DNA of 64,000 bases from a virus. Position 1 is the stretch's first letter, and each line of letters starts with the position of its first letter. The translations under genes were made by a program, and so were the position numbers. Shown one piece after another: positions 2-55,452 of the stretch. The notes below the pieces were generated by a model. That model ran no database searches. It was not told the origin of the DNA and worked only from the letters and a program-made list of their open reading frames with translations. Location of the stretch: IMG/VR virus record IMGVR_UViG_3300004806_000016, one strand, 5' to 3'.

Positions 2-415
2 GACCTGCGAAAACTCTGCGGCATCGAGGCTTATGCTCCAACAGACAATGTTAGCGAACTCTCTGCTCGCACAAACGATGAAGGGTTTGATACAGTATTC
101 ATCGAGTATCTACGCACCTCACGGTTTACACAAGGAGACACAGTAATTGTTCTCTCTGTTGGTGGTGGTAGCGTTGAGCGTAACGTATCTGTTGGTCTTA
201 TTAAGGCAATTGATTACGCACATAAAATGGAGGGTTGCGTACTTTCGATTGTGGGTAAAGAAGATGGCTACGCTGCTACAAAGTCTGACCTAGCAGTCGT
301 TGTTCCCCCAGTAAATCCAGATAGAATTACACCACATAGTGAAGCGTTCCAGGCTGTCGTCTGGCATTGTGTAGTTTCACATCCTGAATTGCAAATGAGA
401 AAAACAAAATGGTAA
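2..415 (+). CDS. gmhA: SIS-domain phosphoheptose isomerase (GmhA-like), 5'-truncated by window
   Basis: Frame is open from base 2 (DLRKLCGIEAYAPTDNVSELSARTNDEGFDTVF...LSVGGGS...HSEAFQAVVWH); ND-G and E..Q..H motifs of GmhA/SIS; context with gmhB and hddA. Confidence 0.8.
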   Translation, partial: DLRKLCGIEAYAPTDNVSELSARTNDEGFDTVFIEYLRTSRFTQGDTVIVLSVGGGSVERNVSVGLIKAIDYAHKMEGCVLSIVGKEDGYAATKSDLAVVVPPVNPDRITPHSEAFQAVVWHCVVSHPELQMRKTKW

Positions 416-966
416 AAGCAGTATTTTTTGATAAAGACGGTGTATTGAATAAGCTAGTCAAGCGGCCAACTAAGATGACTGCTCCCTGGACTATTGAAGA
501 GTTGGAGTTCAACTGGCAGTCAAAAGCAGCAGTTAATCTCGTAAAGAAATATGGTTGGAAGACGTTTATGATTACCAATCAGCCAGATTTCTCCGACGAA
601 GATCCAACAGAAGGTACGGATATCGCAGATCTGTTCGCTATTATGCAGTGTACTCTGTCTTATTTTAGGTTTGATGGGTTTGACTATTGCACCGAGAGAA
701 GCTCAGATCATTATAAACCAGCAACAGGAATGGTTGATGATATTGCCAAAGAACATGATATTGATCTGAAACATAGCATCATGATTGGTGATAGCTGGCG
801 CGATATGGTTCTGGCTTACAAGTGCGGAATGAAGAGCTACTATATAGGTAGTAAAGAAGATATAGATTTCTGGCCAGAAGAATGGCGTAATGTAAGACCA
901 GATTATTTCGTCAATAATGTATATGCTGCTTGTAATCATATCGTAAACGGTGGAGCTATGGAATGA
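409..966 (+). CDS. gmhB: HAD-IIIA heptose 1,7-bisphosphate phosphatase (GmhB-like)
   Basis: FFDKDGVLN, ITNQPD, KPATGM and MIGDSWRD motifs. Confidence 0.85.
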   Translation: MVKAVFFDKDGVLNKLVKRPTKMTAPWTIEELEFNWQSKAAVNLVKKYGWKTFMITNQPDFSDEDPTEGTDIADLFAIMQCTLSYFRFDGFDYCTERSSDHYKPATGMVDDIAKEHDIDLKHSIMIGDSWRDMVLAYKCGMKSYYIGSKEDIDFWPEEWRNVRPDYFVNNVYAACNHIVNGGAME

Positions 967-1694
967 AACTATTTGCTGATGGTGCTGACTTTGATGGTAT
1001 TATTGAGGCGGCAAAGGATCTCGAGATTAAAGGATTCACGACTAATCCTACATTGATGCGTAAAGCAGGTGTAACTGATTATGTTAAATTCTCTCAGAGT
1101 CTAATTGAATACCTATACAATAAGAGACCAGACACTTGCTTGAGTCTTGAGGTATTCGCTGATGATAATGAGGGAATGATTCGTCAAGCCAGAGAGATTG
1201 ACTCTTGGTCTGATGAATATCCAGTGTATGTTAAGATTCCTGTAATGAATACGAAAGGCGAATCAACAGAAGAAGTAATCTCTGTATTGTCTAATGAAGG
1301 AATCAAGCTCAACGTAACAGCAGTGTTTACTATCGATCAGGTACGGGATATCGTGAAGTGTATCACTAAAGATACCCCAACTATCATCTCTGTGTTTGCT
1401 GGACGTATTGCTGACTTGGGTCATAATCCAATCCACATCATGGAAGAAGCAATACAGATTATTGACGCTGGTCTACGCAATTATCCAAACAAGACTACTG
1501 AATTGCTATGGGCCAGCCCACGCGAGGCATATAATTATATTGAAGCATCTAATATTGGTTGTGATATTATTACGATGACACCTGACCTAATTAAGAAGGT
1601 AAAGGGTTTCCGTTCTAAGTCACTAGAGCAGTTCTCAAAAGAAACGGTTCAAATGTTTTGTAATGATGCGGTGGCAAGTGGATTTAAAATATAA
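963..1694 (+). CDS. talC: Transaldolase family protein (TalC/FSA type)
   Basis: GFTTNPTL, YVKIP (Schiff-base Lys), LNVTAVF, SVFAGR, WASPRE. Confidence 0.9.
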   Translation: MKLFADGADFDGIIEAAKDLEIKGFTTNPTLMRKAGVTDYVKFSQSLIEYLYNKRPDTCLSLEVFADDNEGMIRQAREIDSWSDEYPVYVKIPVMNTKGESTEEVISVLSNEGIKLNVTAVFTIDQVRDIVKCITKDTPTIISVFAGRIADLGHNPIHIMEEAIQIIDAGLRNYPNKTTELLWASPREAYNYIEASNIGCDIITMTPDLIKKVKGFRSKSLEQFSKETVQMFCNDAVASGFKI

Positions 1695-2451
1695 AAAAGC
1701 ACTCGTAACAGGTGGTACTCGCGGACTCGGTAAAGTTGTTGCTGAGTTGTTTACGTCAAAGGGTATTGATGTCGTAACCTGTTCTAGAGGAAAACAGGAT
1801 ACACCAAATCATTACCAGTGTGATGTATCCAGTGCTTGGACTGTATCTAGGATGATTAAAGATCATCAAGATCTAGATATTATCGTCTGTAACGCTGGTA
1901 TATATGGGCCGATTGGGCCACTAGAAACTATCAAACCAGACAACTGGAAACAGACCATAGAAGTCAATCTAATGGGTGTTGTTAATGTGTGTCGGTTTGC
2001 CGTTCCCATCTTAAAAGCAAATGGTAAGGGTAAGATCATCATCCTATCGGGTGGTGGTGCTACTCAACCCATGCCTAATTTCTCAGCGTATGCAGCATCA
2101 AAGGCAGCTGTCGTTAGATTCGGCGAGACACTAGCAGAAGAGCTGAGGGAATTTAACATTGATGTTAATTGTGTTGCTCCAGGATCATTGAATACTGACT
2201 TTATGGAACAGGCAATTGCCGCTGGCCCAGAGCTAGCGGGTCAGTCATTTTATGATAGGATGATAAAGCAACAACAAGAGGGTGGTGCTGATATCAATAT
2301 AGCTGCTGAGTTGTGTTACTTCCTAGCATCAGAACAGAGTGATGGATTAACAGGTAAATTAGTAGCAGCCCAGTGGGACGACTGGAAAAATATGGATAAA
2401 TACAATACGACTGGTGATTTATATACATTAAGAAGAGTGAATAAACAATGA
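1678..2451 (+). CDS. Short-chain dehydrogenase/reductase
   Basis: TGGTRGLG, NAG and YAASK motifs; start uncertain (GTG 1678 or ATG 1663). Confidence 0.9.
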   Translation: MDLKYKKALVTGGTRGLGKVVAELFTSKGIDVVTCSRGKQDTPNHYQCDVSSAWTVSRMIKDHQDLDIIVCNAGIYGPIGPLETIKPDNWKQTIEVNLMGVVNVCRFAVPILKANGKGKIIILSGGGATQPMPNFSAYAASKAAVVRFGETLAEELREFNIDVNCVAPGSLNTDFMEQAIAAGPELAGQSFYDRMIKQQQEGGADINIAAELCYFLASEQSDGLTGKLVAAQWDDWKNMDKYNTTGDLYTLRRVNKQ

Positions 2452-3428
2452 ATATAGCTATAGTAGGATGTGGCCTTGTAGGTAACAAGAGAGCAAAACA
2501 ACTGGCTGGTTGTAAGTTAGTTGCCGTCCACGATATAAACAAACAAAAATGCATTGACTTAATTTCCGCAACAGGTTATACTGATTGTGTGATAGAAAAC
2601 GACTGGAAGAATGCCGTTACCCGAAACGATGTTGATGTTGTCATCGTTGCTACAATGCATAATATGTTAGCAGAGATTACGATCGCAGCATTAGAAGCAG
2701 GTAAACATGTATTGGTTGAGAAGCCAGTCGGTAAAGATATTGAAGACATCAACAATATCATCCTAGCAGCAGATAAAGCTGGTAAGATGGTTCGTGTTGG
2801 TTTCAATCATCGCTACCATCCTGCTATGATGAAAGCAACCAAGCTGATCGAACAGGGATACATTGGTGATATCATGTATATCCGTGCTCGCTACGGGCAT
2901 GGTGGTCGCGTAGGATACAACAAAGAATGGCGTGGTGACCCTAAGTTGGCTGGCGGTGGTGAGCTGGTCGAACAGGGTATTCATATCATTGACCTCGCTC
3001 AGAAGTTCTTGGGTAAATTTACTGATGTAAAGGGTTTCGCCGAGACATTCTATTGGGATCAGGTGTTGGATGATAATGCTTTCCTAACACTGCGTAACGA
3101 TAAGAAACAGACAGCATTCATTCATGTAAGCTGTACCGAATGGAAGAATACCTTCTCGTTTGAGATCTACGGCAAGAAGGGTAAGCTAGAAGTCAATGGT
3201 CTTGGCGGTAGCTACGGTATTGAGACTCTCAAGTATTATGAAGTCAGACCAGAGATGGGCCCACCACATACAACTATCTGGGAATACCCACAGGAAGATA
3301 AGTCTTGGGAACAAGAGATCATCGAATTTATGGAAGATATTAGAACTAACAGAACACCAGAAGCAGGACTACAGAGTGCTAGGAATGCTTGGGAAGTAAT
3401 CAACATAATCTATGGAGCAAGTAAATAA
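2448..3428 (+). CDS. Gfo/Idh/MocA family oxidoreductase
   Basis: IVGCGLVG, GKHVLVEKP, GFNHRY, GGGEL...GIHIID. Confidence 0.9.
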   Translation: MNIAIVGCGLVGNKRAKQLAGCKLVAVHDINKQKCIDLISATGYTDCVIENDWKNAVTRNDVDVVIVATMHNMLAEITIAALEAGKHVLVEKPVGKDIEDINNIILAADKAGKMVRVGFNHRYHPAMMKATKLIEQGYIGDIMYIRARYGHGGRVGYNKEWRGDPKLAGGGELVEQGIHIIDLAQKFLGKFTDVKGFAETFYWDQVLDDNAFLTLRNDKKQTAFIHVSCTEWKNTFSFEIYGKKGKLEVNGLGGSYGIETLKYYEVRPEMGPPHTTIWEYPQEDKSWEQEIIEFMEDIRTNRTPEAGLQSARNAWEVINIIYGASK

Positions 3429-4036
3429 TGGCTATCGAGAAAAGATTATTGTTAACAAGATTGGCTAACTGCCCTGTGCTTAATCTTGGTGAATACACAT
3501 ATGGTATGCCGCAAGGATTGGTGTTAGAATTTGGCGTTCACGTTGGTAATACTATCAGAGCAATCTCTCATTTTACTGATCGACCAGTGTTTGGCTTCGA
3601 TTCCTTTGAGGGATTGCCAGAAGATTGGTCTGGTGCTGGTGGTGTAAAGAAAGGCCATTTCGCCTGTGAGATCCCAGAAAATCTCAGACACAATGTGGTT
3701 CTTGTAAAGGGTTGGTTCGAGGATACACTGGGCCCATTCTGTAAGGCAATGAACCATAACAAAGTTGCTTTCGTTCATATTGACTGCGACATTTACTCTG
3801 GTGCTAAGACTATCTTTGGTGAGTTGACCAAGGCAGATATGTGGCAAGATGGTAGCGTTATTGTATTTGATGAGATTGCTGGCTATCCTGGATGGGAAGA
3901 AGGCGAGTTCAAAGCATTCAATGAGTTTCTTGATGCTACTGGTTGGAGATGGAAACTGTTAGGTATTCATGGCGGTAACAGAGCAGACCTAGACCAAGGT
4001 GGTGAAGTTAAGTGTGCCTTTAAGATCTTTAAGTGA
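3428..4036 (+). CDS. TylF/MycF-like SAM-dependent O-methyltransferase
   Basis: LEFGV..G, GFDSFEGLPEDW, VKGWFEDTL, HIDCDIYS, VFDE motifs. Confidence 0.8.
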   Translation: MAIEKRLLLTRLANCPVLNLGEYTYGMPQGLVLEFGVHVGNTIRAISHFTDRPVFGFDSFEGLPEDWSGAGGVKKGHFACEIPENLRHNVVLVKGWFEDTLGPFCKAMNHNKVAFVHIDCDIYSGAKTIFGELTKADMWQDGSVIVFDEIAGYPGWEEGEFKAFNEFLDATGWRWKLLGIHGGNRADLDQGGEVKCAFKIFK

Positions 4037-4043
4037 GAGTAAA

Positions 4044-5072
4044 ATGGAAAATAACTTTGATCTAATAGAACAGAATGAAGCAGGTAAGAATGCAAACGGC
4101 GGAACCGAACTATTCATGCGGTTCCTCTATGGTGGTAGAATTCCTCGTGAGTTGTTAGTCAATACTCAGATTATACCTGGACGTATCAGAGAATTAGATT
4201 CGTCAAAGATTCGCGTATTAACATTACATGATCTACCAGAAGATCCTGAATGTCAGAAACTGAAGGACGCTCATTTCCGTAAGAAATTTCATAAGATAGT
4301 ATTCATCTCAAACTGGCAGTATCAACGGTTCAGAGATATTTTACGTGTTCCCTATTCAACAGAACATACTGTTATTGAAAATGGTTTAGAGCCAATAGAT
4401 GTTGATATTGATAAGAAACCAGATGTTGATGATGTCGTTAATATCTGTTACATTACTACACCTCATCGTGGCCTAGAACTATTGGTACCGATGTTTGAGA
4501 TGTTAGCCAAGGAAGATAAGAAGATACACCTACACGTTCACTCTTCCTTCAATATGTATGGCTGGCCCGATGCTGATAAGCCATACGAAAAACTATTTGA
4601 TACATGTAAGAGTCACCCACAGATTACATATCACGGATATACTGAGTTCAACCAACTTAGAGGGATGATGAAAGACTATCATATCTGTGCCTATCCTTCT
4701 ATCTGGGAAGAGACTGCCTGTCGTTCTATCCTAGAAGCAATGAGTGCTGGTATGTTGTGCGTTCATCCTAACTTTGGTGCATTGTTTGATACGACTGGCG
4801 GCATGAATTTTATGTATGATGGTTCTGCTGATAAGAGACAACATGCTGATATGTTTGGCGAACACCTCTATTCTGCTATCATGGCTGTTAGAACTAAGTC
4901 TGATGCTGTTCGTTCTCGTCTGTTGTTTAACAAGTCATATGTTGATACACGCTATCATCCTGACCTAGCAATCAGCCGCTGGAACAGAATGCTTGGTGAT
5001 CTAAACGATAAGTATGATACACCAGAAAAGAGAAAACTAGAAACACAAATGTTCTCATACAAGGTAGGATAA
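4044..5072 (+). CDS. GT-B (GT4-like) glycosyltransferase
   Basis: GGTE at N-terminus, TPHRGL, YPSIWEETAC..ILEAMSAG (E-x7-E). Confidence 0.85.
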   Translation: MENNFDLIEQNEAGKNANGGTELFMRFLYGGRIPRELLVNTQIIPGRIRELDSSKIRVLTLHDLPEDPECQKLKDAHFRKKFHKIVFISNWQYQRFRDILRVPYSTEHTVIENGLEPIDVDIDKKPDVDDVVNICYITTPHRGLELLVPMFEMLAKEDKKIHLHVHSSFNMYGWPDADKPYEKLFDTCKSHPQITYHGYTEFNQLRGMMKDYHICAYPSIWEETACRSILEAMSAGMLCVHPNFGALFDTTGGMNFMYDGSADKRQHADMFGEHLYSAIMAVRTKSDAVRSRLLFNKSYVDTRYHPDLAISRWNRMLGDLNDKYDTPEKRKLETQMFSYKVG

Positions 5073-6058
5073 TGATCTTAACAAAGACTCCATTACGTAT
5101 CAGTTTCTTCAGCGGTGGCAGCGATCTGCCATCGTTTTATTCTAAGGAAGATGGTGCTGCTCTCTCTGTTACTATAAGCAAATACATCTATGTCATGGTT
5201 CATAAGACACCTCACCTCGGTGTTAAAGTGATGTACGATCAGATTGAAGAATTTCCTGATGTTGAGGCAATGCAAACAAACATTACCAGCGAGACATTGA
5301 AGTACTTCAACATTGAGAAAGAAATAACAGTAGCATCTATATCTGATATTCTATCTAAGGGATCAGGTCTAGGATCATCATCTGCTTTTACCGTTGGTCT
5401 GATTAATGCATTATCAGCAAGTAAATGGGGTGTTGCCTCTAATGGTTACCTAGCAGATATTGCCTGCGAGATAGAGATGAATAGATGTAACTATCCCGTA
5501 GGAAAACAAGACCAGTATGCTGCTGCTTATGGTGGGCTGAACCTATTTCGTTTTAGAAAAAATGGTGAGGTATCAGTAGACCATACAAATGTTTCCCTTT
5601 CTACCCTAGGCAAATTAGAATCAAATCTAATGCTAGTATATAGTGGAAAGGGCAGATCAGCAAATAGTATCTTACAGAAACAATCAGCAGCAATGAGTGA
5701 TGCTGATAAGTTCAATCTAGTAAGACGTAGCAGAGACAAAGCATTTACTGGTCTTGAATACCTGCGCAATGGTGATGTTGACTCTTTTGGTGACCTATTA
5801 CATGAGGCATGGCTAGATAAGAAAGGAGTAGTCAGCGAGATAACACAAGACTACTTCGATGACGTGTATCAAAATATAAGAATAGCTGGAGCAATTGGTG
5901 GTAAACTACTTGGTGCTGGCGGTGGTGGTTTCTTTATATTCTATGTTACTCCTGATAAACAAGAGCATGTCAGACATCATATTGAAAACTATACTTCATG
6001 TAAAGTGTATGACTTCAAATTCACTGATCGTGGATCCCAAATAGTTTCAATTTGCTAA
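5072..6058 (+). CDS. hddA: GHMP kinase, HddA-like heptose-7-phosphate kinase
   Basis: TPLRISFFSGGSD, GSGLGSSS, GKQDQY, GGKLLGAGGGGF. Confidence 0.85.
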   Translation: MILTKTPLRISFFSGGSDLPSFYSKEDGAALSVTISKYIYVMVHKTPHLGVKVMYDQIEEFPDVEAMQTNITSETLKYFNIEKEITVASISDILSKGSGLGSSSAFTVGLINALSASKWGVASNGYLADIACEIEMNRCNYPVGKQDQYAAAYGGLNLFRFRKNGEVSVDHTNVSLSTLGKLESNLMLVYSGKGRSANSILQKQSAAMSDADKFNLVRRSRDKAFTGLEYLRNGDVDSFGDLLHEAWLDKKGVVSEITQDYFDDVYQNIRIAGAIGGKLLGAGGGGFFIFYVTPDKQEHVRHHIENYTSCKVYDFKFTDRGSQIVSIC

Positions 6059-47103: not shown

Positions 47104-50100
47104 ATGGCTCTTCAAACAGATCTATCCCGCTCGCCTTACTTTGATGACTACGATGTAAATAAGAATTTTTATCGTGTTCTTTACCGCCCATCTGTTGCTG
47201 TTCAGGCTCGCGAACTTAATCAGATGCAGACAATATTACAAGATCAAATTGATAAATTTGGGCGTAATATTTTTAAAGAAGGTTCTGTCACAGAAGGTTG
47301 TGCATTTACTTTTGATGATAAGTATAATTACGTAAAAATTAACGATACATATGCTAATGGCGCCGCATTTACTATTACAGATTTCCAAGATAAAGTAATT
47401 ACTAATGGATTTGGTTTAAGAGCTATCGTTCATAATACTGTAGCAGGTTTTATAACACAAGATCCTGATCTTAACACTCTTTATGTAAAATACATCAATT
47501 CAGTAACAAATAATGGTATAACATATACAGCATTCTCTAACAACGATAATCTTGTTGTTACTACACAGGCTAACGTGGCTGTTGGTAACCTTACTGTTGC
47601 GACTGTAACCAATTCAACAGGCGTTGGATATGCCTTTACGACTACAGCCGGAACCATCTATAAAAAAGGTTTCTTTATTAGCGTTCAGCCTCAGACATTA
47701 ATTGTTTCAAAATATGATAATATGCCAGATGGTATCTCTGTTGGTTTTGATGCTACTGAAAATATCATTACACCAGAAGCTGATTCTTCTCTTTATGATA
47801 ACGCAGCTGGTTCGCCAAACTATGCAGCTCCAGGAGCACACCGTTTACAATTAATTCCTACTCTCGTAACTAGATATGCAAATAACATATCTAACACTTC
47901 TTCTTTCTTTTCTTTGTGCGATTTTAAAAGCGGTAAACCCGTTTCTATCAAAAATGATCCACAATATGCTCTACTTGGTGCACAAATTGCACAGAGAACA
48001 TATGAAACGAATGGTAATTATGTTGTTTATCCTTTTGTTCTCTCTACAGAAGCAAAAGCTGCCAATGATGCTTTAAATTCTACATATGTAAATCTTGTTT
48101 CTTCTGCTGGTCTTGGATATGTTGAAGGATATAGAGTACAATATGTCAACAACAATAAAATAAACCTTAGAAGATCAACAGATTACGATACTGTAAAAAA
48201 TGTTGTTGTTAGCGCAAATTATGGTTATTATATCAATGTTAATAATTTCTGTGGTGAATTTAATACTGATCAATTATACCAAGTAGAATTACACAGCGTT
48301 GCAAAAACAGCTGTTACTAGTGGCACTTTGTTAAGCACTGGATATTCTAGCTCTACTAGAATCGGAACAGCATATCTTCGTGGATTTATGTTCAGTTCTG
48401 GTAATATCGGCAGTGGTTCAGATATCTATACAGCATATCTATTTGATGTGCAGATGAATCCAGGTAAAAATTTCAGCGCTGTTAAGAGTATCATCAACTA
48501 TCAATCTTCTGCAGTTGTTGGTGTTGCTGACGTTATTCAGACATATGATTCTACTGTTAATGCGAATATTTCTAAGATTCAGAGCGCCCAGTTTAACAAC
48601 ATGATTTATCCTTTTGGTCAGAAAGCGCTGAAAGAAAACGGTTTCAATAACACACAGTATGTTTATCGCGATAAGAAAACATCATCGTTCGGCGTTCCAT
48701 CTCTTTCTGGTGGAGCGATGTCTTTCACTTTAAGTTCTGCTGACGGTACTGCAACAGAATCTTTTAATGTTTCTGGCACTCTTTCTCCTGCTCAGACTAC
48801 AGAATTTTTAGTAGTCCCAACAGTATCAGGATATACTTCTAACTATACTGGTACAGTATCAACATCTGGAAACACAGTAACTGGTTCTTCTGATGCTGCT
48901 TTCCTATCTCATTTTGTTCCAGGCGATTATATCAGTATTGGTGGCTCTAATTTCCTAGTAACATTCGTTGCTAATAATACTTCTCTGAATACAATCGGTT
49001 CAGTATCAGGTTCTGGCTCATTTGCAAAAGCATTCCCAGCTGGAGTTCCTATCGACTTTACTAGAGGAAATAGATCAGTTGTTATTAGCGGAACAACTGC
49101 GACTTTTACTCTAAATGAGACTTTATCTGCATCGTTCAACGCCAAGATCTATTATGACGTTCTTCGTTCTTCTACTGTAGCGATCAAAAAACAAATTAAA
49201 AAGAATGTTATCGTTCAAATAAATTGCGCAAGTCATTCTGCTACAACTAATGGCCCATATTCTCTTGGTTTCCCAGATGTTTATAAGATTAATGCGATTT
49301 ATCTAAACGAAGGAACATATTCTAACTCTGGTATTAATCTATCATCTGCTTTTAAATTTGACAATGGCCAGAGAGATAATTATTACGATCTCGCAACGAT
49401 TACTCCTATTTCTGCTAATTTAGATGCAAATACTCGCATTTATGTTGATATGCAAGTGTTTACTTATGATCAATCGTCAGGTAAAGGTTTCTTTACTGCA
49501 AACTCTTATCCTATAGACAATGCTAATACTGCAAATACAACAGCAATTCAGACTGCTGCTATTCCTCAATATACAGCAACTGATGGTTCTATTTTTGATT
49601 TAAGAGACTGTGTTGATTTTAGACCTTTCGCGGCAAACACAGCAAATCCTGCGGCAAATTCTTCAAATTTTGCATCAACTGCTACTACAAATCCATCAGG
49701 AACATTAACATTTAGTCTTTCTTCTAAACATTCTTCCTCAGGGACTTATCTTCCTACACCAAATCAAAATTTTGAATCTGATATTCAACATTATTTGTCA
49801 AGAATTGATAAAGCTGTGATTAAAACAAATGGTGATTTTATTATCGTAGAAGGTAATCCATCAAATTCTCCTATTCCTCCTGTAGATCAACCTGGGGCGA
49901 TGACTCTTGGGATTATTACCGTTCCGCCATATCCATCATTAGCAACCCCAGAAGCCAATGATGCTAAAAGATATGATTATGCAATAACAAATTCAATTAC
50001 TCAGATTAAAAGATACACCATGAAAGATATTGGTGTTCTTTCTAATAAAATTGATAATCTGGAATATTATACTTCTCTCTCTTTGTTAGAAACACAAGCC

Positions 50101-52857
50101 AAAAATACTCTTGTGCGCTCGAGCGCGACAGGTCAAAACAGATTCCAAAATGGTATTCTTGTCGATCCTTTTAGAGGCCATGACATAGGTAACACTCTAG
50201 ATCCAAATTATAATATAGCTATTGATACTGTTAAGTCTGAATTGAGACCATTTTTTGATCAGTTCCGTAGACCTATGAAATATAGCCAAGATTTAAGCAC
50301 AAACACTGTAAAAAAAGGTAATGCTGTTCTTTTAAATTATACAGAAACACAATATATTTCTCAAAATTATGCAAGTAAATATAGAAATTGTATTGAAGGT
50401 AATATATATGTTTGGTCTGGCGAAATAAATTTCATTCCTCCTGGGGATACACAACCAGATCTTACTAAGAGCCCAGACGTTGTTAATAATATTGATCTTG
50501 CTTCTAATTTTGTTAATATTTCTGCTGCATATGGTACACAATGGGGTAATTGGCAAACAACAAGTTCAGCGACTGATTCTAAGATAGCTGGAACTGATTA
50601 TAGTTCTGTTACAGATTCTTATGGAAATATTATCAACACTACCTCAACACAAACAGCAACTACTACTAACACTCAACAACAGCGTGCTGGCACACAACTT
50701 GCTGTTACTACTAGCACAAATCAATATAATGTGGGAACATTCGTAACAGATGTTTCAACATTACCTTATGTAAAATCTATTGCAGTAACTGTGATAGCTC
50801 ATGGATTAAAACCAGGAAGTAGAGTCTATGGTTTCATAAACAATATAGACGTGAATCATTATCTTGGGCCAGCTAATAGTTCTTATGTTCCGTCAGGAAA
50901 TTTAGGCGATCCATTGATTGTTGATAGTAATGGAAATTTATATGCACAATTAATAATTCCGCCAAATACTTTTAGATCAACGACTCTAGAAATGAATCTT
51001 TATGATGTTCCTAACCCAGTAACAGGTATAGATGCTATAACAACAAAAGCTACAGGTAATTTTTACGGTTCAAACATAAGTATAGCAAAGGGATCTTCTA
51101 TATTAAATGCAAGAGAAGCTGTTGTTTCGGTTCAACAAGTTACAGATCAACAGACTATAACTCAAACTGTAGTAACAAGTAATTCTAGTGTTGTTGTTAT
51201 ACCTGCTCCAGCACCACCAGAGCCTCCATATAATCCTTACGGAGATAGTATTCCTGCTGCTTCTGATGGAAATAGTTATGATGGCGGCGGTGGTTGTTGT
51301 TTTGATCCAGATACGAAAGTTCTTATGGCTGATGGGTCTTGGAAAAAGATTTCAGATATTTTAGAAGGCGAACAAGTTATAGGTTCCACAGGTAATGTTA
51401 ATACAGTTACAGGAACAAAATCAACAACTGTTCAAGACCGTATGATGAAAAAAATCAAAGGATATGATTTCTTTGCTACCGATGACCATCTGTTCTTAAC
51501 CAATAATGGCTGGAAAACTTGGAGACCTGATAGATTAATTATAAACAACAGAGAAAATGCTGTTTTCTTAGAAGGAGAAAACCGTTATACTCCTCTTAAT
51601 GACAAAGATATTCTTACTTTATTTAAAGATGGAAAAGTAACGAGTGTTCCATATTCTGAATTAGAAATTGAAGATCATATCTTTAATCCTGACTTTGTCG
51701 TTCATGATTTACATCTTGATGGCGATCAATCGTATATTGTTGAAGAATTTGTTGTCCATAACTGTGGTGGTGGTGGATGTGGATGTTGTTTTGATCCAGA
51801 AGCTTCTGTACTGATGGCTGATAAATCTCTGAAAAAAATTAAAGATGTCGAAATCGGAGATTTAGTTGTCGGTTATGGTGGTCAAATAAATAAAGTTGTA
51901 AACGTAAAAACCACAACGGTAAATGATAGACCGATGAAAGGATTTAATGGTTTTGCGTTTGCCACTGATGACCATCTGTTCCTTACTATCAATGGTTGGA
52001 AAACATTTAATCCACAAAGAGTTTTTGACAACAATTTAGATGTCAGAGTTTACCTAACTGGCGAAAACAAAACAACCCCTCTAAATGAGAACGATTCATT
52101 TGTAATGATGGGCATTTATGAACACAATGAAATTTCAATGAGCAGCCTATCTTATAAAGATTTAGATGTTATCACAGAAATAAAAGATAATGATTATGTT
52201 GTTTATGATCTTACCCTTGATGGTAACCATACTTATGTTGTTGAGGGATTTGTTGTTCATAACTGTGACGGATGTTCTTGTTTCTTGGCCGGAAGTTTAA
52301 TAACAATGGCAGATGGATCTGTAAAAGTAATTGAAGATGTAAAAGTAGGAGAATATGTCCTAGGAGCTTTTGGCGAACACAATATAATTCTTGGTAAAGA
52401 TAATGTTGTGCTTGGTAATAGATCGATGTATAAAATCAATTCAGAACATGATACTGCTGGGGATCATCCTCACGTTTCTAAAGATAAAAAATTCTATTCT
52501 TTTGAGGTAGATGCAATTTATAAAGAATGGGGTGGTTCTTATCCCGTAATTCTAGAAAACGATGAAATTGATATTTTAATCAATAAAGGATTAAATAAAG
52601 ATAGAGTCCATCAATTAGAACTTGGTGTTGAACTTAAGACTGTAGATTCTTCTAAAGTCGTAGAAGAAATATTGGTATACGATATGCCACCAGAAACAAA
52701 GCTCTACAATTTTGTTGTTGGCGGGAGTCATACTTACTTTGTTAATGGTTACGCTGTAACTGGATGGCCTAGAGAAGATGACTTTGATTATGATAAATGG
52801 GAGTCAAAAGGAATTCAATTGACTCTTGATGATTATAGAATAAATACAAAGAAGTAA
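47104..52857 (+). CDS. VrlC/DUF4815-like large virion protein, N-terminal part, with three C-terminal Hint domains
   Basis: SPYFDDYD..KNFYRVL.RP..AVQARELNQ.Q, APGAHRL, RYTMKDIG.L...I.NLEYYTSLSLLE, RF.NG..VD.F. Confidence 0.88.
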   Translation: MALQTDLSRSPYFDDYDVNKNFYRVLYRPSVAVQARELNQMQTILQDQIDKFGRNIFKEGSVTEGCAFTFDDKYNYVKINDTYANGAAFTITDFQDKVITNGFGLRAIVHNTVAGFITQDPDLNTLYVKYINSVTNNGITYTAFSNNDNLVVTTQANVAVGNLTVATVTNSTGVGYAFTTTAGTIYKKGFFISVQPQTLIVSKYDNMPDGISVGFDATENIITPEADSSLYDNAAGSPNYAAPGAHRLQLIPTLVTRYANNISNTSSFFSLCDFKSGKPVSIKNDPQYALLGAQIAQRTYETNGNYVVYPFVLSTEAKAANDALNSTYVNLVSSAGLGYVEGYRVQYVNNNKINLRRSTDYDTVKNVVVSANYGYYINVNNFCGEFNTDQLYQVELHSVAKTAVTSGTLLSTGYSSSTRIGTAYLRGFMFSSGNIGSGSDIYTAYLFDVQMNPGKNFSAVKSIINYQSSAVVGVADVIQTYDSTVNANISKIQSAQFNNMIYPFGQKALKENGFNNTQYVYRDKKTSSFGVPSLSGGAMSFTLSSADGTATESFNVSGTLSPAQTTEFLVVPTVSGYTSNYTGTVSTSGNTVTGSSDAAFLSHFVPGDYISIGGSNFLVTFVANNTSLNTIGSVSGSGSFAKAFPAGVPIDFTRGNRSVVISGTTATFTLNETLSASFNAKIYYDVLRSSTVAIKKQIKKNVIVQINCASHSATTNGPYSLGFPDVYKINAIYLNEGTYSNSGINLSSAFKFDNGQRDNYYDLATITPISANLDANTRIYVDMQVFTYDQSSGKGFFTANSYPIDNANTANTTAIQTAAIPQYTATDGSIFDLRDCVDFRPFAANTANPAANSSNFASTATTNPSGTLTFSLSSKHSSSGTYLPTPNQNFESDIQHYLSRIDKAVIKTNGDFIIVEGNPSNSPIPPVDQPGAMTLGIITVPPYPSLATPEANDAKRYDYAITNSITQIKRYTMKDIGVLSNKIDNLEYYTSLSLLETQAKNTLVRSSATGQNRFQNGILVDPFRGHDIGNTLDPNYNIAIDTVKSELRPFFDQFRRPMKYSQDLSTNTVKKGNAVLLNYTETQYISQNYASKYRNCIEGNIYVWSGEINFIPPGDTQPDLTKSPDVVNNIDLASNFVNISAAYGTQWGNWQTTSSATDSKIAGTDYSSVTDSYGNIINTTSTQTATTTNTQQQRAGTQLAVTTSTNQYNVGTFVTDVSTLPYVKSIAVTVIAHGLKPGSRVYGFINNIDVNHYLGPANSSYVPSGNLGDPLIVDSNGNLYAQLIIPPNTFRSTTLEMNLYDVPNPVTGIDAITTKATGNFYGSNISIAKGSSILNAREAVVSVQQVTDQQTITQTVVTSNSSVVVIPAPAPPEPPYNPYGDSIPAASDGNSYDGGGGCCFDPDTKVLMADGSWKKISDILEGEQVIGSTGNVNTVTGTKSTTVQDRMMKKIKGYDFFATDDHLFLTNNGWKTWRPDRLIINNRENAVFLEGENRYTPLNDKDILTLFKDGKVTSVPYSELEIEDHIFNPDFVVHDLHLDGDQSYIVEEFVVHNCGGGGCGCCFDPEASVLMADKSLKKIKDVEIGDLVVGYGGQINKVVNVKTTTVNDRPMKGFNGFAFATDDHLFLTINGWKTFNPQRVFDNNLDVRVYLTGENKTTPLNENDSFVMMGIYEHNEISMSSLSYKDLDVITEIKDNDYVVYDLTLDGNHTYVVEGFVVHNCDGCSCFLAGSLITMADGSVKVIEDVKVGEYVLGAFGEHNIILGKDNVVLGNRSMYKINSEHDTAGDHPHVSKDKKFYSFEVDAIYKEWGGSYPVILENDEIDILINKGLNKDRVHQLELGVELKTVDSSKVVEEILVYDMPPETKLYNFVVGGSHTYFVNGYAVTGWPREDDFDYDKWESKGIQLTLDDYRINTKK
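51298..51762 (+). other. Mini-intein 1 (155 aa)
   Basis: Block A CFDPDTKVLMADG, block B TDDH, block F VHDL, block G VVHN followed by +1 Cys. Confidence 0.9.
51787..52263 (+). other. Mini-intein 2 (159 aa)
   Basis: CFDPEASVLMAD, TDDH, VYDL, VVHN followed by +1 Cys. Confidence 0.9.
52279..52767 (+). other. Hint domain 3 lacking terminal His-Asn
   Basis: CFLAGSLITMADG, AGDH, LYNF...HTYFVNGYAV-TG-W. Confidence 0.85.
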
Positions 52858-52869
52858 TTAGGGGTAAAA

Positions 52870-55452
52870 ATGACTAAACCAATTGCGCAAACTTTCTATA
52901 TTAATGAACCCGTTGGTGGAACCGATGGAGTAGTATTAACTGCAGTTGATATCTATTTTGCATCTGTGAGCTCAAATTATGGTGTTGAATTGCAGATCAG
53001 AACCACTGATAATGGTAACCCAACAACTGATCGTTTACCGAACGGCCAAAAAGTGTTACAAATATCAGATACGTATGCTTCTGATATTACATATCTTAAG
53101 AATGGCACATCAACGACCATATCAGCTGGCAGTAAAATTATTACAGCATCTGCTGATGCCACAGTCCCTACAAGATTTGAATTTGATACTCCAATATTCT
53201 TAAAATCACAAACATCATATGCATTCGTTATTATTCCGATTGGTGGTAACCCTGATTATACTGTTTGGACAGCAGAATTGGGTAAGACCGATGTATCATT
53301 AAACACCCCAATTACTACAAATAATGATACAGGAACACTTTTCTTATCTTCGAACGATATACAATTTACAGCAATTCAATCTGAAGATATTAAATTTACA
53401 ATTTACACAGCTGATTTTACTGTCAGTGGTGGTTCTGGTACTGCAGTATATACAATGTTTGATGAAGAAAATATGCAGTACAATAATCTTATTGGTTCTT
53501 TTACTCCAAATGAATTGCTTTTTATATCTGATACAAATTACAATTTGGCTAAATTGAGAATCGATTCTACAAATACTATTCCTTTCTCAGTTGGTGAAAC
53601 TGTTTACCAGAGTAATGGAAGCGCCAATTTAGCAACAGGTGTCTTGTATTATGCAAACGGTTCTTCTTTGCTTGTAACAAATACTGTTGGAGCTTTTGTT
53701 GCTTCTTCTGGAAACACGACTCTATATGTTCAGGGCGGAGCCTCAGGAGCTACTGTTAATGTGACATCTTATAGTCAAAATGTTATAGCTCAATCAAATT
53801 CTACTATCATAGTTCCGTTTACTGGGAACGGAACTGCAAATATTTTTTATGCAAACCAATCAATATATATCGGTACGAACAATCGTTCATCAATGCAGGT
53901 TGGTATTGTTAATACTGTTATTAATTCTACAGCTTTTTCTCTTGCAGGAAATATATCATTCAGCGATACCAATTCACTTTTAGGGCAAGTAAGAGGTGAT
54001 GGTTTAGCTCTTAATGGTAGATTTAGTGGTTCTGTTGCTCAAAACATATCAAATAAGTATATGTCAACAAATTTTTATATTTGGGGATCTACGGCAAACG
54101 CTTCTTCTAATTTCTCCAACTCTTATGGAAAATACCTAATAGGAAAATCTTCTCAATCTTCAGCAATCATAAATTCTAATTATAATAGATCTTATAATGC
54201 TATTATTCCACAATTTGCTGATATGACTTCTTTTTCCACAAATATCAATTATTATCTAACAGGTATTCAAAAAAATAATACTTCAGATTCATCTCCTATT
54301 CCTGTGGTTAATAATTCAGAAAAAGAATTTTACGATGTTGAAAGAGCTGTAAAAGCTAGATCAGACGAACTTATCAATAATGGTGGCTCTTACACAACTT
54401 TAATTTCTGCAGAATTTACTACCGCAAACAATAAATTTTCTCCATATATTGATAGTATTTCTAATTACTCTACTTTTACTAGAAATTATACTTTCCAAAA
54501 ATGGCAAACTTACGGATATGTTCTTTCTATTTCAAATGCCACTAATAGTTTTTATGTTTCTAGAAACAATTCAGGACAACCTGTTTCTCAATCTAATGGT
54601 TCAGTTACAGTAACAGGTAATTTCCATTATGGAAACAGTAGTGTTATGTATATTTCAAATACTTCTGGTCCATTTCAGGCTGGTTATAGTATCTATGTTA
54701 CAGGAAATTCAACTATTAATGCTTATGTTAATTCTTCACAAAAATACGGAGAAATATATAATACTAATCTAATTTATCCAAGATCAAGATATATTTCTAA
54801 AAACGTAGTTCTTGCTGATAAACAAGACGCCGAAGACCTTAAATGTTTCATAGCAGCATATCGTCCAGCAACAACTGATTTTAAAGTTTATGCTAAAATT
54901 CAACACAACCAAGATTCTTCAGCTTTTAATAATATATACTGGTCTAGAATGGTAGAAATATCTTCGCCTGCTTTATTAAGTTCTGGGACAAATCTAGATG
55001 ATTTTGTTGAACTTGAATATGATTTTCCGACTAGTGTTTTCTTGGCTTCAAATAATGCACAATGCAATACTTCTTCAGCTAACGTAACAGTTTCTACGAC
55101 AGCAGGTATCGCAAACGGTAATTATATCTATCTGTATAATACTGCTGCTAATACTTTTATTGTTCGTATGGTAAATTATGTTGCGAATAATACTACTCTA
55201 GTCCTAACTTCCAACCCATCAATCTCAACTACTGTTAGTGCTTATGCTGATATTGGTATTATTCCTGGAATTGAAGACCAGACTGGAGCTTTCTTGTTCG
55301 CAAATAATAACAACATAGTAAGATACGTATCTAATACTGATGTCGTTTATGATAGCTTTAAGACTTTTGCTATTAAGATTATTCCTGTCTCAGAGACATC
55401 TTATATTATTCCAAGAGCCGCAGATATGAGATGTTTAGCGTTGCAGGTGTAA
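52870..55452 (+). CDS. VrlC/DUF4815-like virion protein, C-terminal part
   Basis: Starts PIAQTF, .T.VD.YF, PT.F.F..P..L, G.LF.S.N..W/F....EDIKF, RYISK.V.L, FAIKI...P...D.R..A. Confidence 0.85.
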   Translation: MTKPIAQTFYINEPVGGTDGVVLTAVDIYFASVSSNYGVELQIRTTDNGNPTTDRLPNGQKVLQISDTYASDITYLKNGTSTTISAGSKIITASADATVPTRFEFDTPIFLKSQTSYAFVIIPIGGNPDYTVWTAELGKTDVSLNTPITTNNDTGTLFLSSNDIQFTAIQSEDIKFTIYTADFTVSGGSGTAVYTMFDEENMQYNNLIGSFTPNELLFISDTNYNLAKLRIDSTNTIPFSVGETVYQSNGSANLATGVLYYANGSSLLVTNTVGAFVASSGNTTLYVQGGASGATVNVTSYSQNVIAQSNSTIIVPFTGNGTANIFYANQSIYIGTNNRSSMQVGIVNTVINSTAFSLAGNISFSDTNSLLGQVRGDGLALNGRFSGSVAQNISNKYMSTNFYIWGSTANASSNFSNSYGKYLIGKSSQSSAIINSNYNRSYNAIIPQFADMTSFSTNINYYLTGIQKNNTSDSSPIPVVNNSEKEFYDVERAVKARSDELINNGGSYTTLISAEFTTANNKFSPYIDSISNYSTFTRNYTFQKWQTYGYVLSISNATNSFYVSRNNSGQPVSQSNGSVTVTGNFHYGNSSVMYISNTSGPFQAGYSIYVTGNSTINAYVNSSQKYGEIYNTNLIYPRSRYISKNVVLADKQDAEDLKCFIAAYRPATTDFKVYAKIQHNQDSSAFNNIYWSRMVEISSPALLSSGTNLDDFVELEYDFPTSVFLASNNAQCNTSSANVTVSTTAGIANGNYIYLYNTAANTFIVRMVNYVANNTTLVLTSNPSISTTVSAYADIGIIPGIEDQTGAFLFANNNNIVRYVSNTDVVYDSFKTFAIKIIPVSETSYIIPRAADMRCLALQV

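Follow-up and report, generated by a model that had tools for sequence, protein, structure and literature searches.

Type A bacterial intein-like (BIL) domains (Amitai et al.; PDB 2LWY) are endonuclease-free Hint domains that end in His-Asn and lie in hypervariable regions of non-conserved proteins, where they usually lack a +1 nucleophile and mainly cleave (PMC7765530, PMC5874633, PMC7664689). BIL2 of Tetrahymena BUBL1 (PDB 6Y75/6TMM) sits between the folded ubiquitin-like domains of a polyprotein and forms an isopeptide bond via a Lys (PMC8616854). Class 1 mini-inteins such as Ssp DnaB, gp41-1 and the splicing domain of Mtu RecA have Cys1, TxxH, a block-F Asp, His-Asn and a +1 Cys; class 1 inteins occupy conserved enzyme sites and leave no scar. 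Among phage baseplates, that of Staphylococcus phage 812 has trimeric tripod proteins (PMC13433997).

The window analysed here, the whole 64,000-nucleotide stretch of virus record IMGVR_UViG_3300004806_000016, is part of a T4-like myovirus genome. Genes for gp5, gp7, gp8 and fibre-type proteins flank a locus with the following features:

47104..52857, + strand: N-terminal half of a split DUF4815/VrlC baseplate protein, a 1917-aa precursor (PF16075; phrog_358 positions 1-1240; distant match to PDB 9EUF ORF65)
51202..51294, + strand: Pro/Gly/Asp low-complexity hinge, the hypervariable tail and, in fused homologues, the joint of both halves
51295..51297, + strand: Cys(-1) of cassette 1 (43/43 in the clade; missing at empty sites)
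51298..51762, + strand: Hint1, Cys-bracketed mini-intein of 155 aa, aa 1399-1553 (C1, TxxH, block-F Asp, His-Asn)
51763..51786, + strand: spacer 1, 8 aa, CGGGGCGC, which supplies Cys(+1) to cassette 1 and Cys(-1) to cassette 2 and contains one native Cys
51787..52263, + strand: Hint2, Cys-bracketed mini-intein of 159 aa, aa 1562-1720 (about 50% identity with Hint1)
52264..52278, + strand: spacer 2, 5 aa, CDGCS, which supplies Cys(+1) to cassette 2 and contains the second native Cys
52279..52854, + strand: Hint3, a terminal domain from a different Hint family (Cys1 and block-B His present, His-Asn missing, acidic/aromatic end conserved; 284 homologues; fold)
52870..55452, + strand: C-terminal half of the split DUF4815/VrlC protein, in its own gene (phrog_358 positions 1422-2020; PDB 9EUF 850-944)

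The phrog_358/DUF4815 match spans aa 1-1258 of the first ORF, and the gene at 52870-55452 corresponds to the last third of the phrog_358 profile. Because adjacent ORFs match successive parts of one profile, a VrlC-like baseplate protein is split in two here, at a low-complexity hinge that is an internal stretch in fused homologues. The PF16075/phrog_358 match and a location after gp6, gp7 and gp8 place the protein in the DUF4815/VrlC family, together with VrlC/VriC of T4-like phages and the phage 812 tripod protein. Both window genes match parts of PDB 9EUF ORF65, which we take to be that tripod protein; ORF65 is a single 1152-aa chain without Hint domains, and the matches are short and distant. 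The split point (window 52857-52870; also P0027, P0096, P0103, L054 and L055) is an Asp-Pro hinge: some N-halves terminate in DP, C-halves begin near PIAQTF, and fused homologues may hold one Cys-bracketed cassette at this position. Elsewhere in the window, a gene run at 409-6058 resembles sugar-nucleotide/heptose biosynthesis enzymes, judged by N-terminal sequences.

A sequence-only reading of this DNA had described two tandem mini-inteins (155 and 159 aa) followed by spacers of 8 and 5 residues respectively, both inteins retaining Cys1, TDDH in block B, the block-F Asp, His-Asn and a +1 Cys, and all of these features are present. Hint1 passes the N-terminal intein model TIGR01445 and Hint2 the C-terminal model TIGR01443. 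The absence of an endonuclease was likewise borne out by the AlphaFold model of Hint1 (pLDDT 96), which is a pure Hint fold with no such insert. In Foldseek, this model matched inteins and BILs at E ~1e-8, with BUBL1 BIL2 as its best structural match in the PDB; single Hint domains score under the Pfam cut-offs of the BIL models PT-HINT and Hint_2, and a sequence search of the PDB returned no match. The CFLAG stretch that had been placed after the array does follow spacer 2, but it starts a third, different Hint domain (52279-52854) that lacks His-Asn. An assembly artefact is ruled out by the ~50% identity of the two copies and by the recurrence of arrays in independent assemblies.

Relatives of Hint1 and Hint2 were retrieved with intein profile searches, using a profile that leaves out the flanks (single-sequence locus scans with Hint1 and Hint3 gave zero matches, so that an alignment was required). 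Both Hints fall in a well-supported clade (100/97) whose hosts are the split VrlC, fused VrlC at the same hinge, a second VrlC subfamily, an SLT-bearing ejection protein and several fibre-type proteins. The cassette is mostly single in these unrelated virion proteins, and many copies lie mid-protein, with 470-700 residues downstream; some have only 3-5 residues downstream yet retain His-Asn-Cys. Cys occupies both -1 and +1 in 43 of 43 complete members, while positions -6 to -2 and +2 to +6 vary, and this conservation is not circular because the profile that defines the clade excludes the flanks. Since both Cys codons are used at both flanks, synonymous sites are saturated (median pS 0.75) and dN/dS is low (0.07-0.33 among diverged pairs where it could be computed), both flanking Cys are under selection. 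The Hint1/Hint2 domains are themselves under purifying selection, and the two in the window look splicing-competent from their residues.

Occupied sites in the second VrlC subfamily read KGH-C[Hint]C-CVAY and empty ones GKH-CSAY, in alleles that are only 42-47% identical. Because empty sites have neither flanking Cys, both arrive with the insert; the CC pair is also missing in 96 of 98 cassette-free tails. For the SLT/ejection-protein host, empty alleles were too distant to compare. We infer that the moving unit is Cys-Hint-Cys, an endonuclease-free cassette with a nucleophile of its own, whose splicing would leave Cys-Cys behind as a scar. Its sites are hypervariable linkers of unrelated virion proteins, which agrees with the earlier view that these are not ordinary homing inteins of a conserved enzyme core. 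A homing intein was rejected: neither the element nor any retrieved allelic version (clade members are 145-163 aa) has an endonuclease.

These cassettes thus have affinities with both described classes. They share with type A BIL domains the lack of an endonuclease, the His-Asn end, the hypervariable setting and the fold; unlike those domains, they have invariant Cys at -1 and +1 (43/43), and they were found only in virion proteins of uncultured phages. With class 1 mini-inteins they share Cys1, TxxH, the block-F Asp, His-Asn, the +1 Cys and the fold, but they lie outside conserved enzyme sites, form tandem arrays and have no endonuclease-bearing relative among the retrieved sequences. Nor do they appear scarless, as both Cys are missing from empty sites, a contrast of moderate strength given how distant the empty alleles are. 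Identity to BUBL1 BIL2 is 17%, and the exteins here are short, unconserved Cys/Gly linkers in place of that protein's flanking domains. The cassette would therefore act like a class 1 mini-intein and live like a type A BIL domain. No cassette was found among the cultured phages searched (one weak partial match was to a terminase intein) or in a pattern scan of GTDB genomes, and a literature search that covered few subscription papers returned nothing on tandem phage inteins, on Hint domains with VrlC or on a Cys-bracketed cassette.

More distantly related Hints have a +1 Lys in 165 of 197 cases, with the -1 residue free, and the +1 Lys lineages that are sisters of the window clade fit the type A BIL description well. 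It is a possibility, by analogy with BUBL1 BIL2, that these Hints use Lys side-chain (isopeptide) chemistry. Several proteins (P0122, P0123, P0125, P0181 and P0198) have arrays of as many as six complete +1 Lys Hints and one terminal Hint, with a single Lys between neighbours. Tandem Hints on virion proteins are common, and the distinctive trait of the window clade is its Cys-Cys bracket. Two further loci also contain inserted Hint elements. At L077:614-1390 (+), a 138-aa mini-intein lies between the Trp and the first Cys of the WCGPC active site of a thioredoxin (TIGR01068, over cut-off). At L232:106-2322, the gene has a CNCCC-rich segment with a Cys-bracketed cassette after it, and immediately downstream comes a radical SAM/SPASM enzyme that resembles peptide maturases (every match under cut-off).

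An element with its own -1 and +1 Cys and a predicted scar stands between inteins and BIL domains. By midpoint rooting, the Cys-bracketed clade nests among the +1 Lys Hints, which offers a natural test of a transition from cleaving to splicing, and the cassettes allow one to ask how dispensable linkers can retain an element that has no endonuclease. They also predict that phage baseplate and fibre proteins are processed after translation in ways missed by annotation, and protein engineers could use them as a compact, linker-tolerant intein family.

The tail that houses the array is short, Gly/Asp-rich and hypervariable across 120 homologues. It may end plainly, in one to three Hints of the Hint1/2 type, in other terminal Hints, in a helical domain or, in P0068, in the Peptidase S74 intramolecular chaperone, a self-removing C-terminal module. 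The helical alternative is a Cys-led module that starts I/V-I-C-T (P0021, P0026, P0075, P0077, P0084, P0098, P0111, P0115). Most orthologues are cassette-free, close relatives included, and the host tree shows three or more switches between presence and absence of the cassette. Copy number ranges from 0 to 3, and spacers are 3-9 aa long and different in each protein, which rules out a conserved spacer peptide.

How the window acquired two copies can be read in part from the Hint phylogeny. The sequence-only reading took shared DNA stretches as a sign of duplication; the shared 15-mer (51481 and 51967) encodes DDHLF, a motif near-invariant across the family, and so does not serve as one. The two copies are not sisters in the best tree, but an AU test does not reject their sisterhood (p = 0.30). 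Hint1 is nearest to the first copies of other VrlC proteins (71% to P0009), and Hint2 clusters weakly with ejection-protein copies. A recent tandem duplication at the window is ruled out, since dS between the two Hints is >1 and the sibling of each copy ranks only 41st and 27th of 58. Duplication does occur in the family, because the two copies of P0002 are sisters. Independent acquisition and an old duplication are both possible origins of the window array.

The reading we favour, at a probability of roughly 0.6, is that Hint1 and Hint2 are optional, endonuclease-free Cys-Hint-Cys cassettes that are shuffled among virion-protein linkers and splice themselves out, leaving Cys-Cys scars. Recombination would move them, and at times duplicate them, among flexible Gly/Pro-rich linkers, and possession of its own +1 nucleophile would make a cassette independent of host sequence. 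Judged by the intact catalytic residues, class 1 splicing would take place soon after translation, in the reducing cytoplasm, and the resulting scar would be accepted only by a tolerant linker. Hint3 would then detach at its N side via the Cys1 thioester. The 209 kDa precursor would thereby give a mature N-half of a predicted ~152 kDa, whose tail would be Gly-rich with two native Cys, as is usual in the clade, and would bear two Cys-Cys scars in addition. Residence in dispensable linkers, stacking and spacers that look Cys-rich would all follow from a self-contained nucleophile.

That the tail accepts interchangeable end modules, S74 among them, counts for this cassette reading. Against it, a passenger with no endonuclease would have no drive, yet His-Asn-Cys is kept where only 3-5 residues follow, a hint that the cassette may be useful. 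It is unusual among inteins for a -1 residue to be fixed across unrelated hosts. The simplest account of the fixed Cys(-1) would be that the active site of this Hint requires it in its substrate; use of the Cys-Cys product could explain it equally well. A fixed Cys(-1) and full splicing chemistry ahead of such short C-exteins may thus leave room for a useful role.

One such role would belong to a domesticated processing module, kept for the function of its flanking Cys, an alternative that we consider possible but unlikely. A Cys(-1)-Cys1 disulfide might act as a redox gate, Cys(-1) and Cys(+1) might tether cleaved halves, vicinal pairs might cross-link the trimer after lysis, or the Hint might be a self-removing assembly aid like S74. 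Several observations fit: Cys(-1) is invariant though not native to the hosts, the complete splicing set is retained with C-exteins of 3-5 residues, the cassette sits at the exact VrlC split/fusion hinge (L054, L055, P0133, P0153), and it swaps with S74 and adjoins S74 fibre genes. Reducing conditions in the cytoplasm during virion assembly, however, would keep a disulfide lock open; the cassette is missing from most orthologues, even close ones, and its copy number is arbitrary. Inteins under disulfide control do have precedent (PMC5874633). A fuller version, which we regard as doubtful, is that a domesticated Hint clade, with both flanking Cys as part of its unit, equips virion proteins with vicinal Cys-Cys pairs or with a disulfide-gated junction, that tandem copies tune the number of thiols available for cross-linking or metal binding on a baseplate tail, and that the terminal Hint thioester-activates the tail for attachment of a partner.

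The sequence-only reading had proposed that double splicing builds a specific six-Cys, metallothionein-like tail for metal binding or cross-linking, with isoforms arising through partial processing and a possible redox or timing role. In-silico double splicing does place six Cys within 18 residues, a high density, and a conserved component exists: once flanking Cys are subtracted, 21 of 23 members of the window's host clade (support 81) have exactly two native Cys, both of which lie downstream of intein 1 in all carriers. These native Cys are sited in the spacers, so that only splicing would place them on the mature protein. The six-Cys product itself is not conserved. After in-silico splicing, the tail holds two Cys plus two per intein: two in 15 of the 20 nearest cassette-free relatives, four in 5/6 single carriers (two of them near-identical), six in all three double carriers and eight in the one triple carrier. 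More distant relatives frequently have no native tail Cys, and most relatives have 0-3 Cys. The number thus follows copy number, the spacing varies, the survey of DUF4815/VrlC homologues found linkers of different sequence and length in every orthologue, and single copies in unrelated proteins predominate. The cassette-free N-half of P0048 has ten Cys within its last 35 residues, which counts in favour of the proposal. Overall, a selected metallothionein-like product is improbable; the six-Cys sum probably belongs to this allele, with the peptide incidental.

Least probable of all is a natural two-intein cyclisation or peptide release, in which BIL-like cleavage outweighs splicing and C-cleavage by Hint1 frees the N-terminal Cys of the spacer to attack the Hint2 thioester, yielding a circular or polymeric product of the kind made with engineered pTWIN systems. 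In its favour, the geometry fits, each spacer opening with Cys and terminating where a Cys1 thioester would form; BIL domains, for their part, mainly cleave (PMC7664689) and provide the nearest folds. Against it, the spacers show no conservation and span 3-9 aa, single copies prevail among carriers, position +1 has the Cys missing from BILs, and mid-protein copies favour ligation.

Hint3, whose detachment would complete processing under the cassette reading, belongs to an abundant family distinct from that of Hint1 and Hint2, with 284 homologues located mostly at the termini of fibre-type proteins. Cys1 is invariant in this family and the block-B His is present in 99%, His-Asn is absent, and the window copy has Ala in place of the block-B Thr. 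Its closest structural match in Foldseek is again BUBL1 BIL2. From these residues, Hint3 is predicted to cleave at its N side only. The Hedgehog Hog domain has the same N-cleave-only layout, both being self-removing C-terminal modules (Hint3 by prediction); a chaperone role like that of S74, or an external nucleophile as for Hog, would be hypothetical for the three window Hints. Beyond block G, the Hint3 family has a strongly conserved acidic/aromatic extension that is modelled with high confidence and is a candidate element for recognition of a nucleophile or partner.
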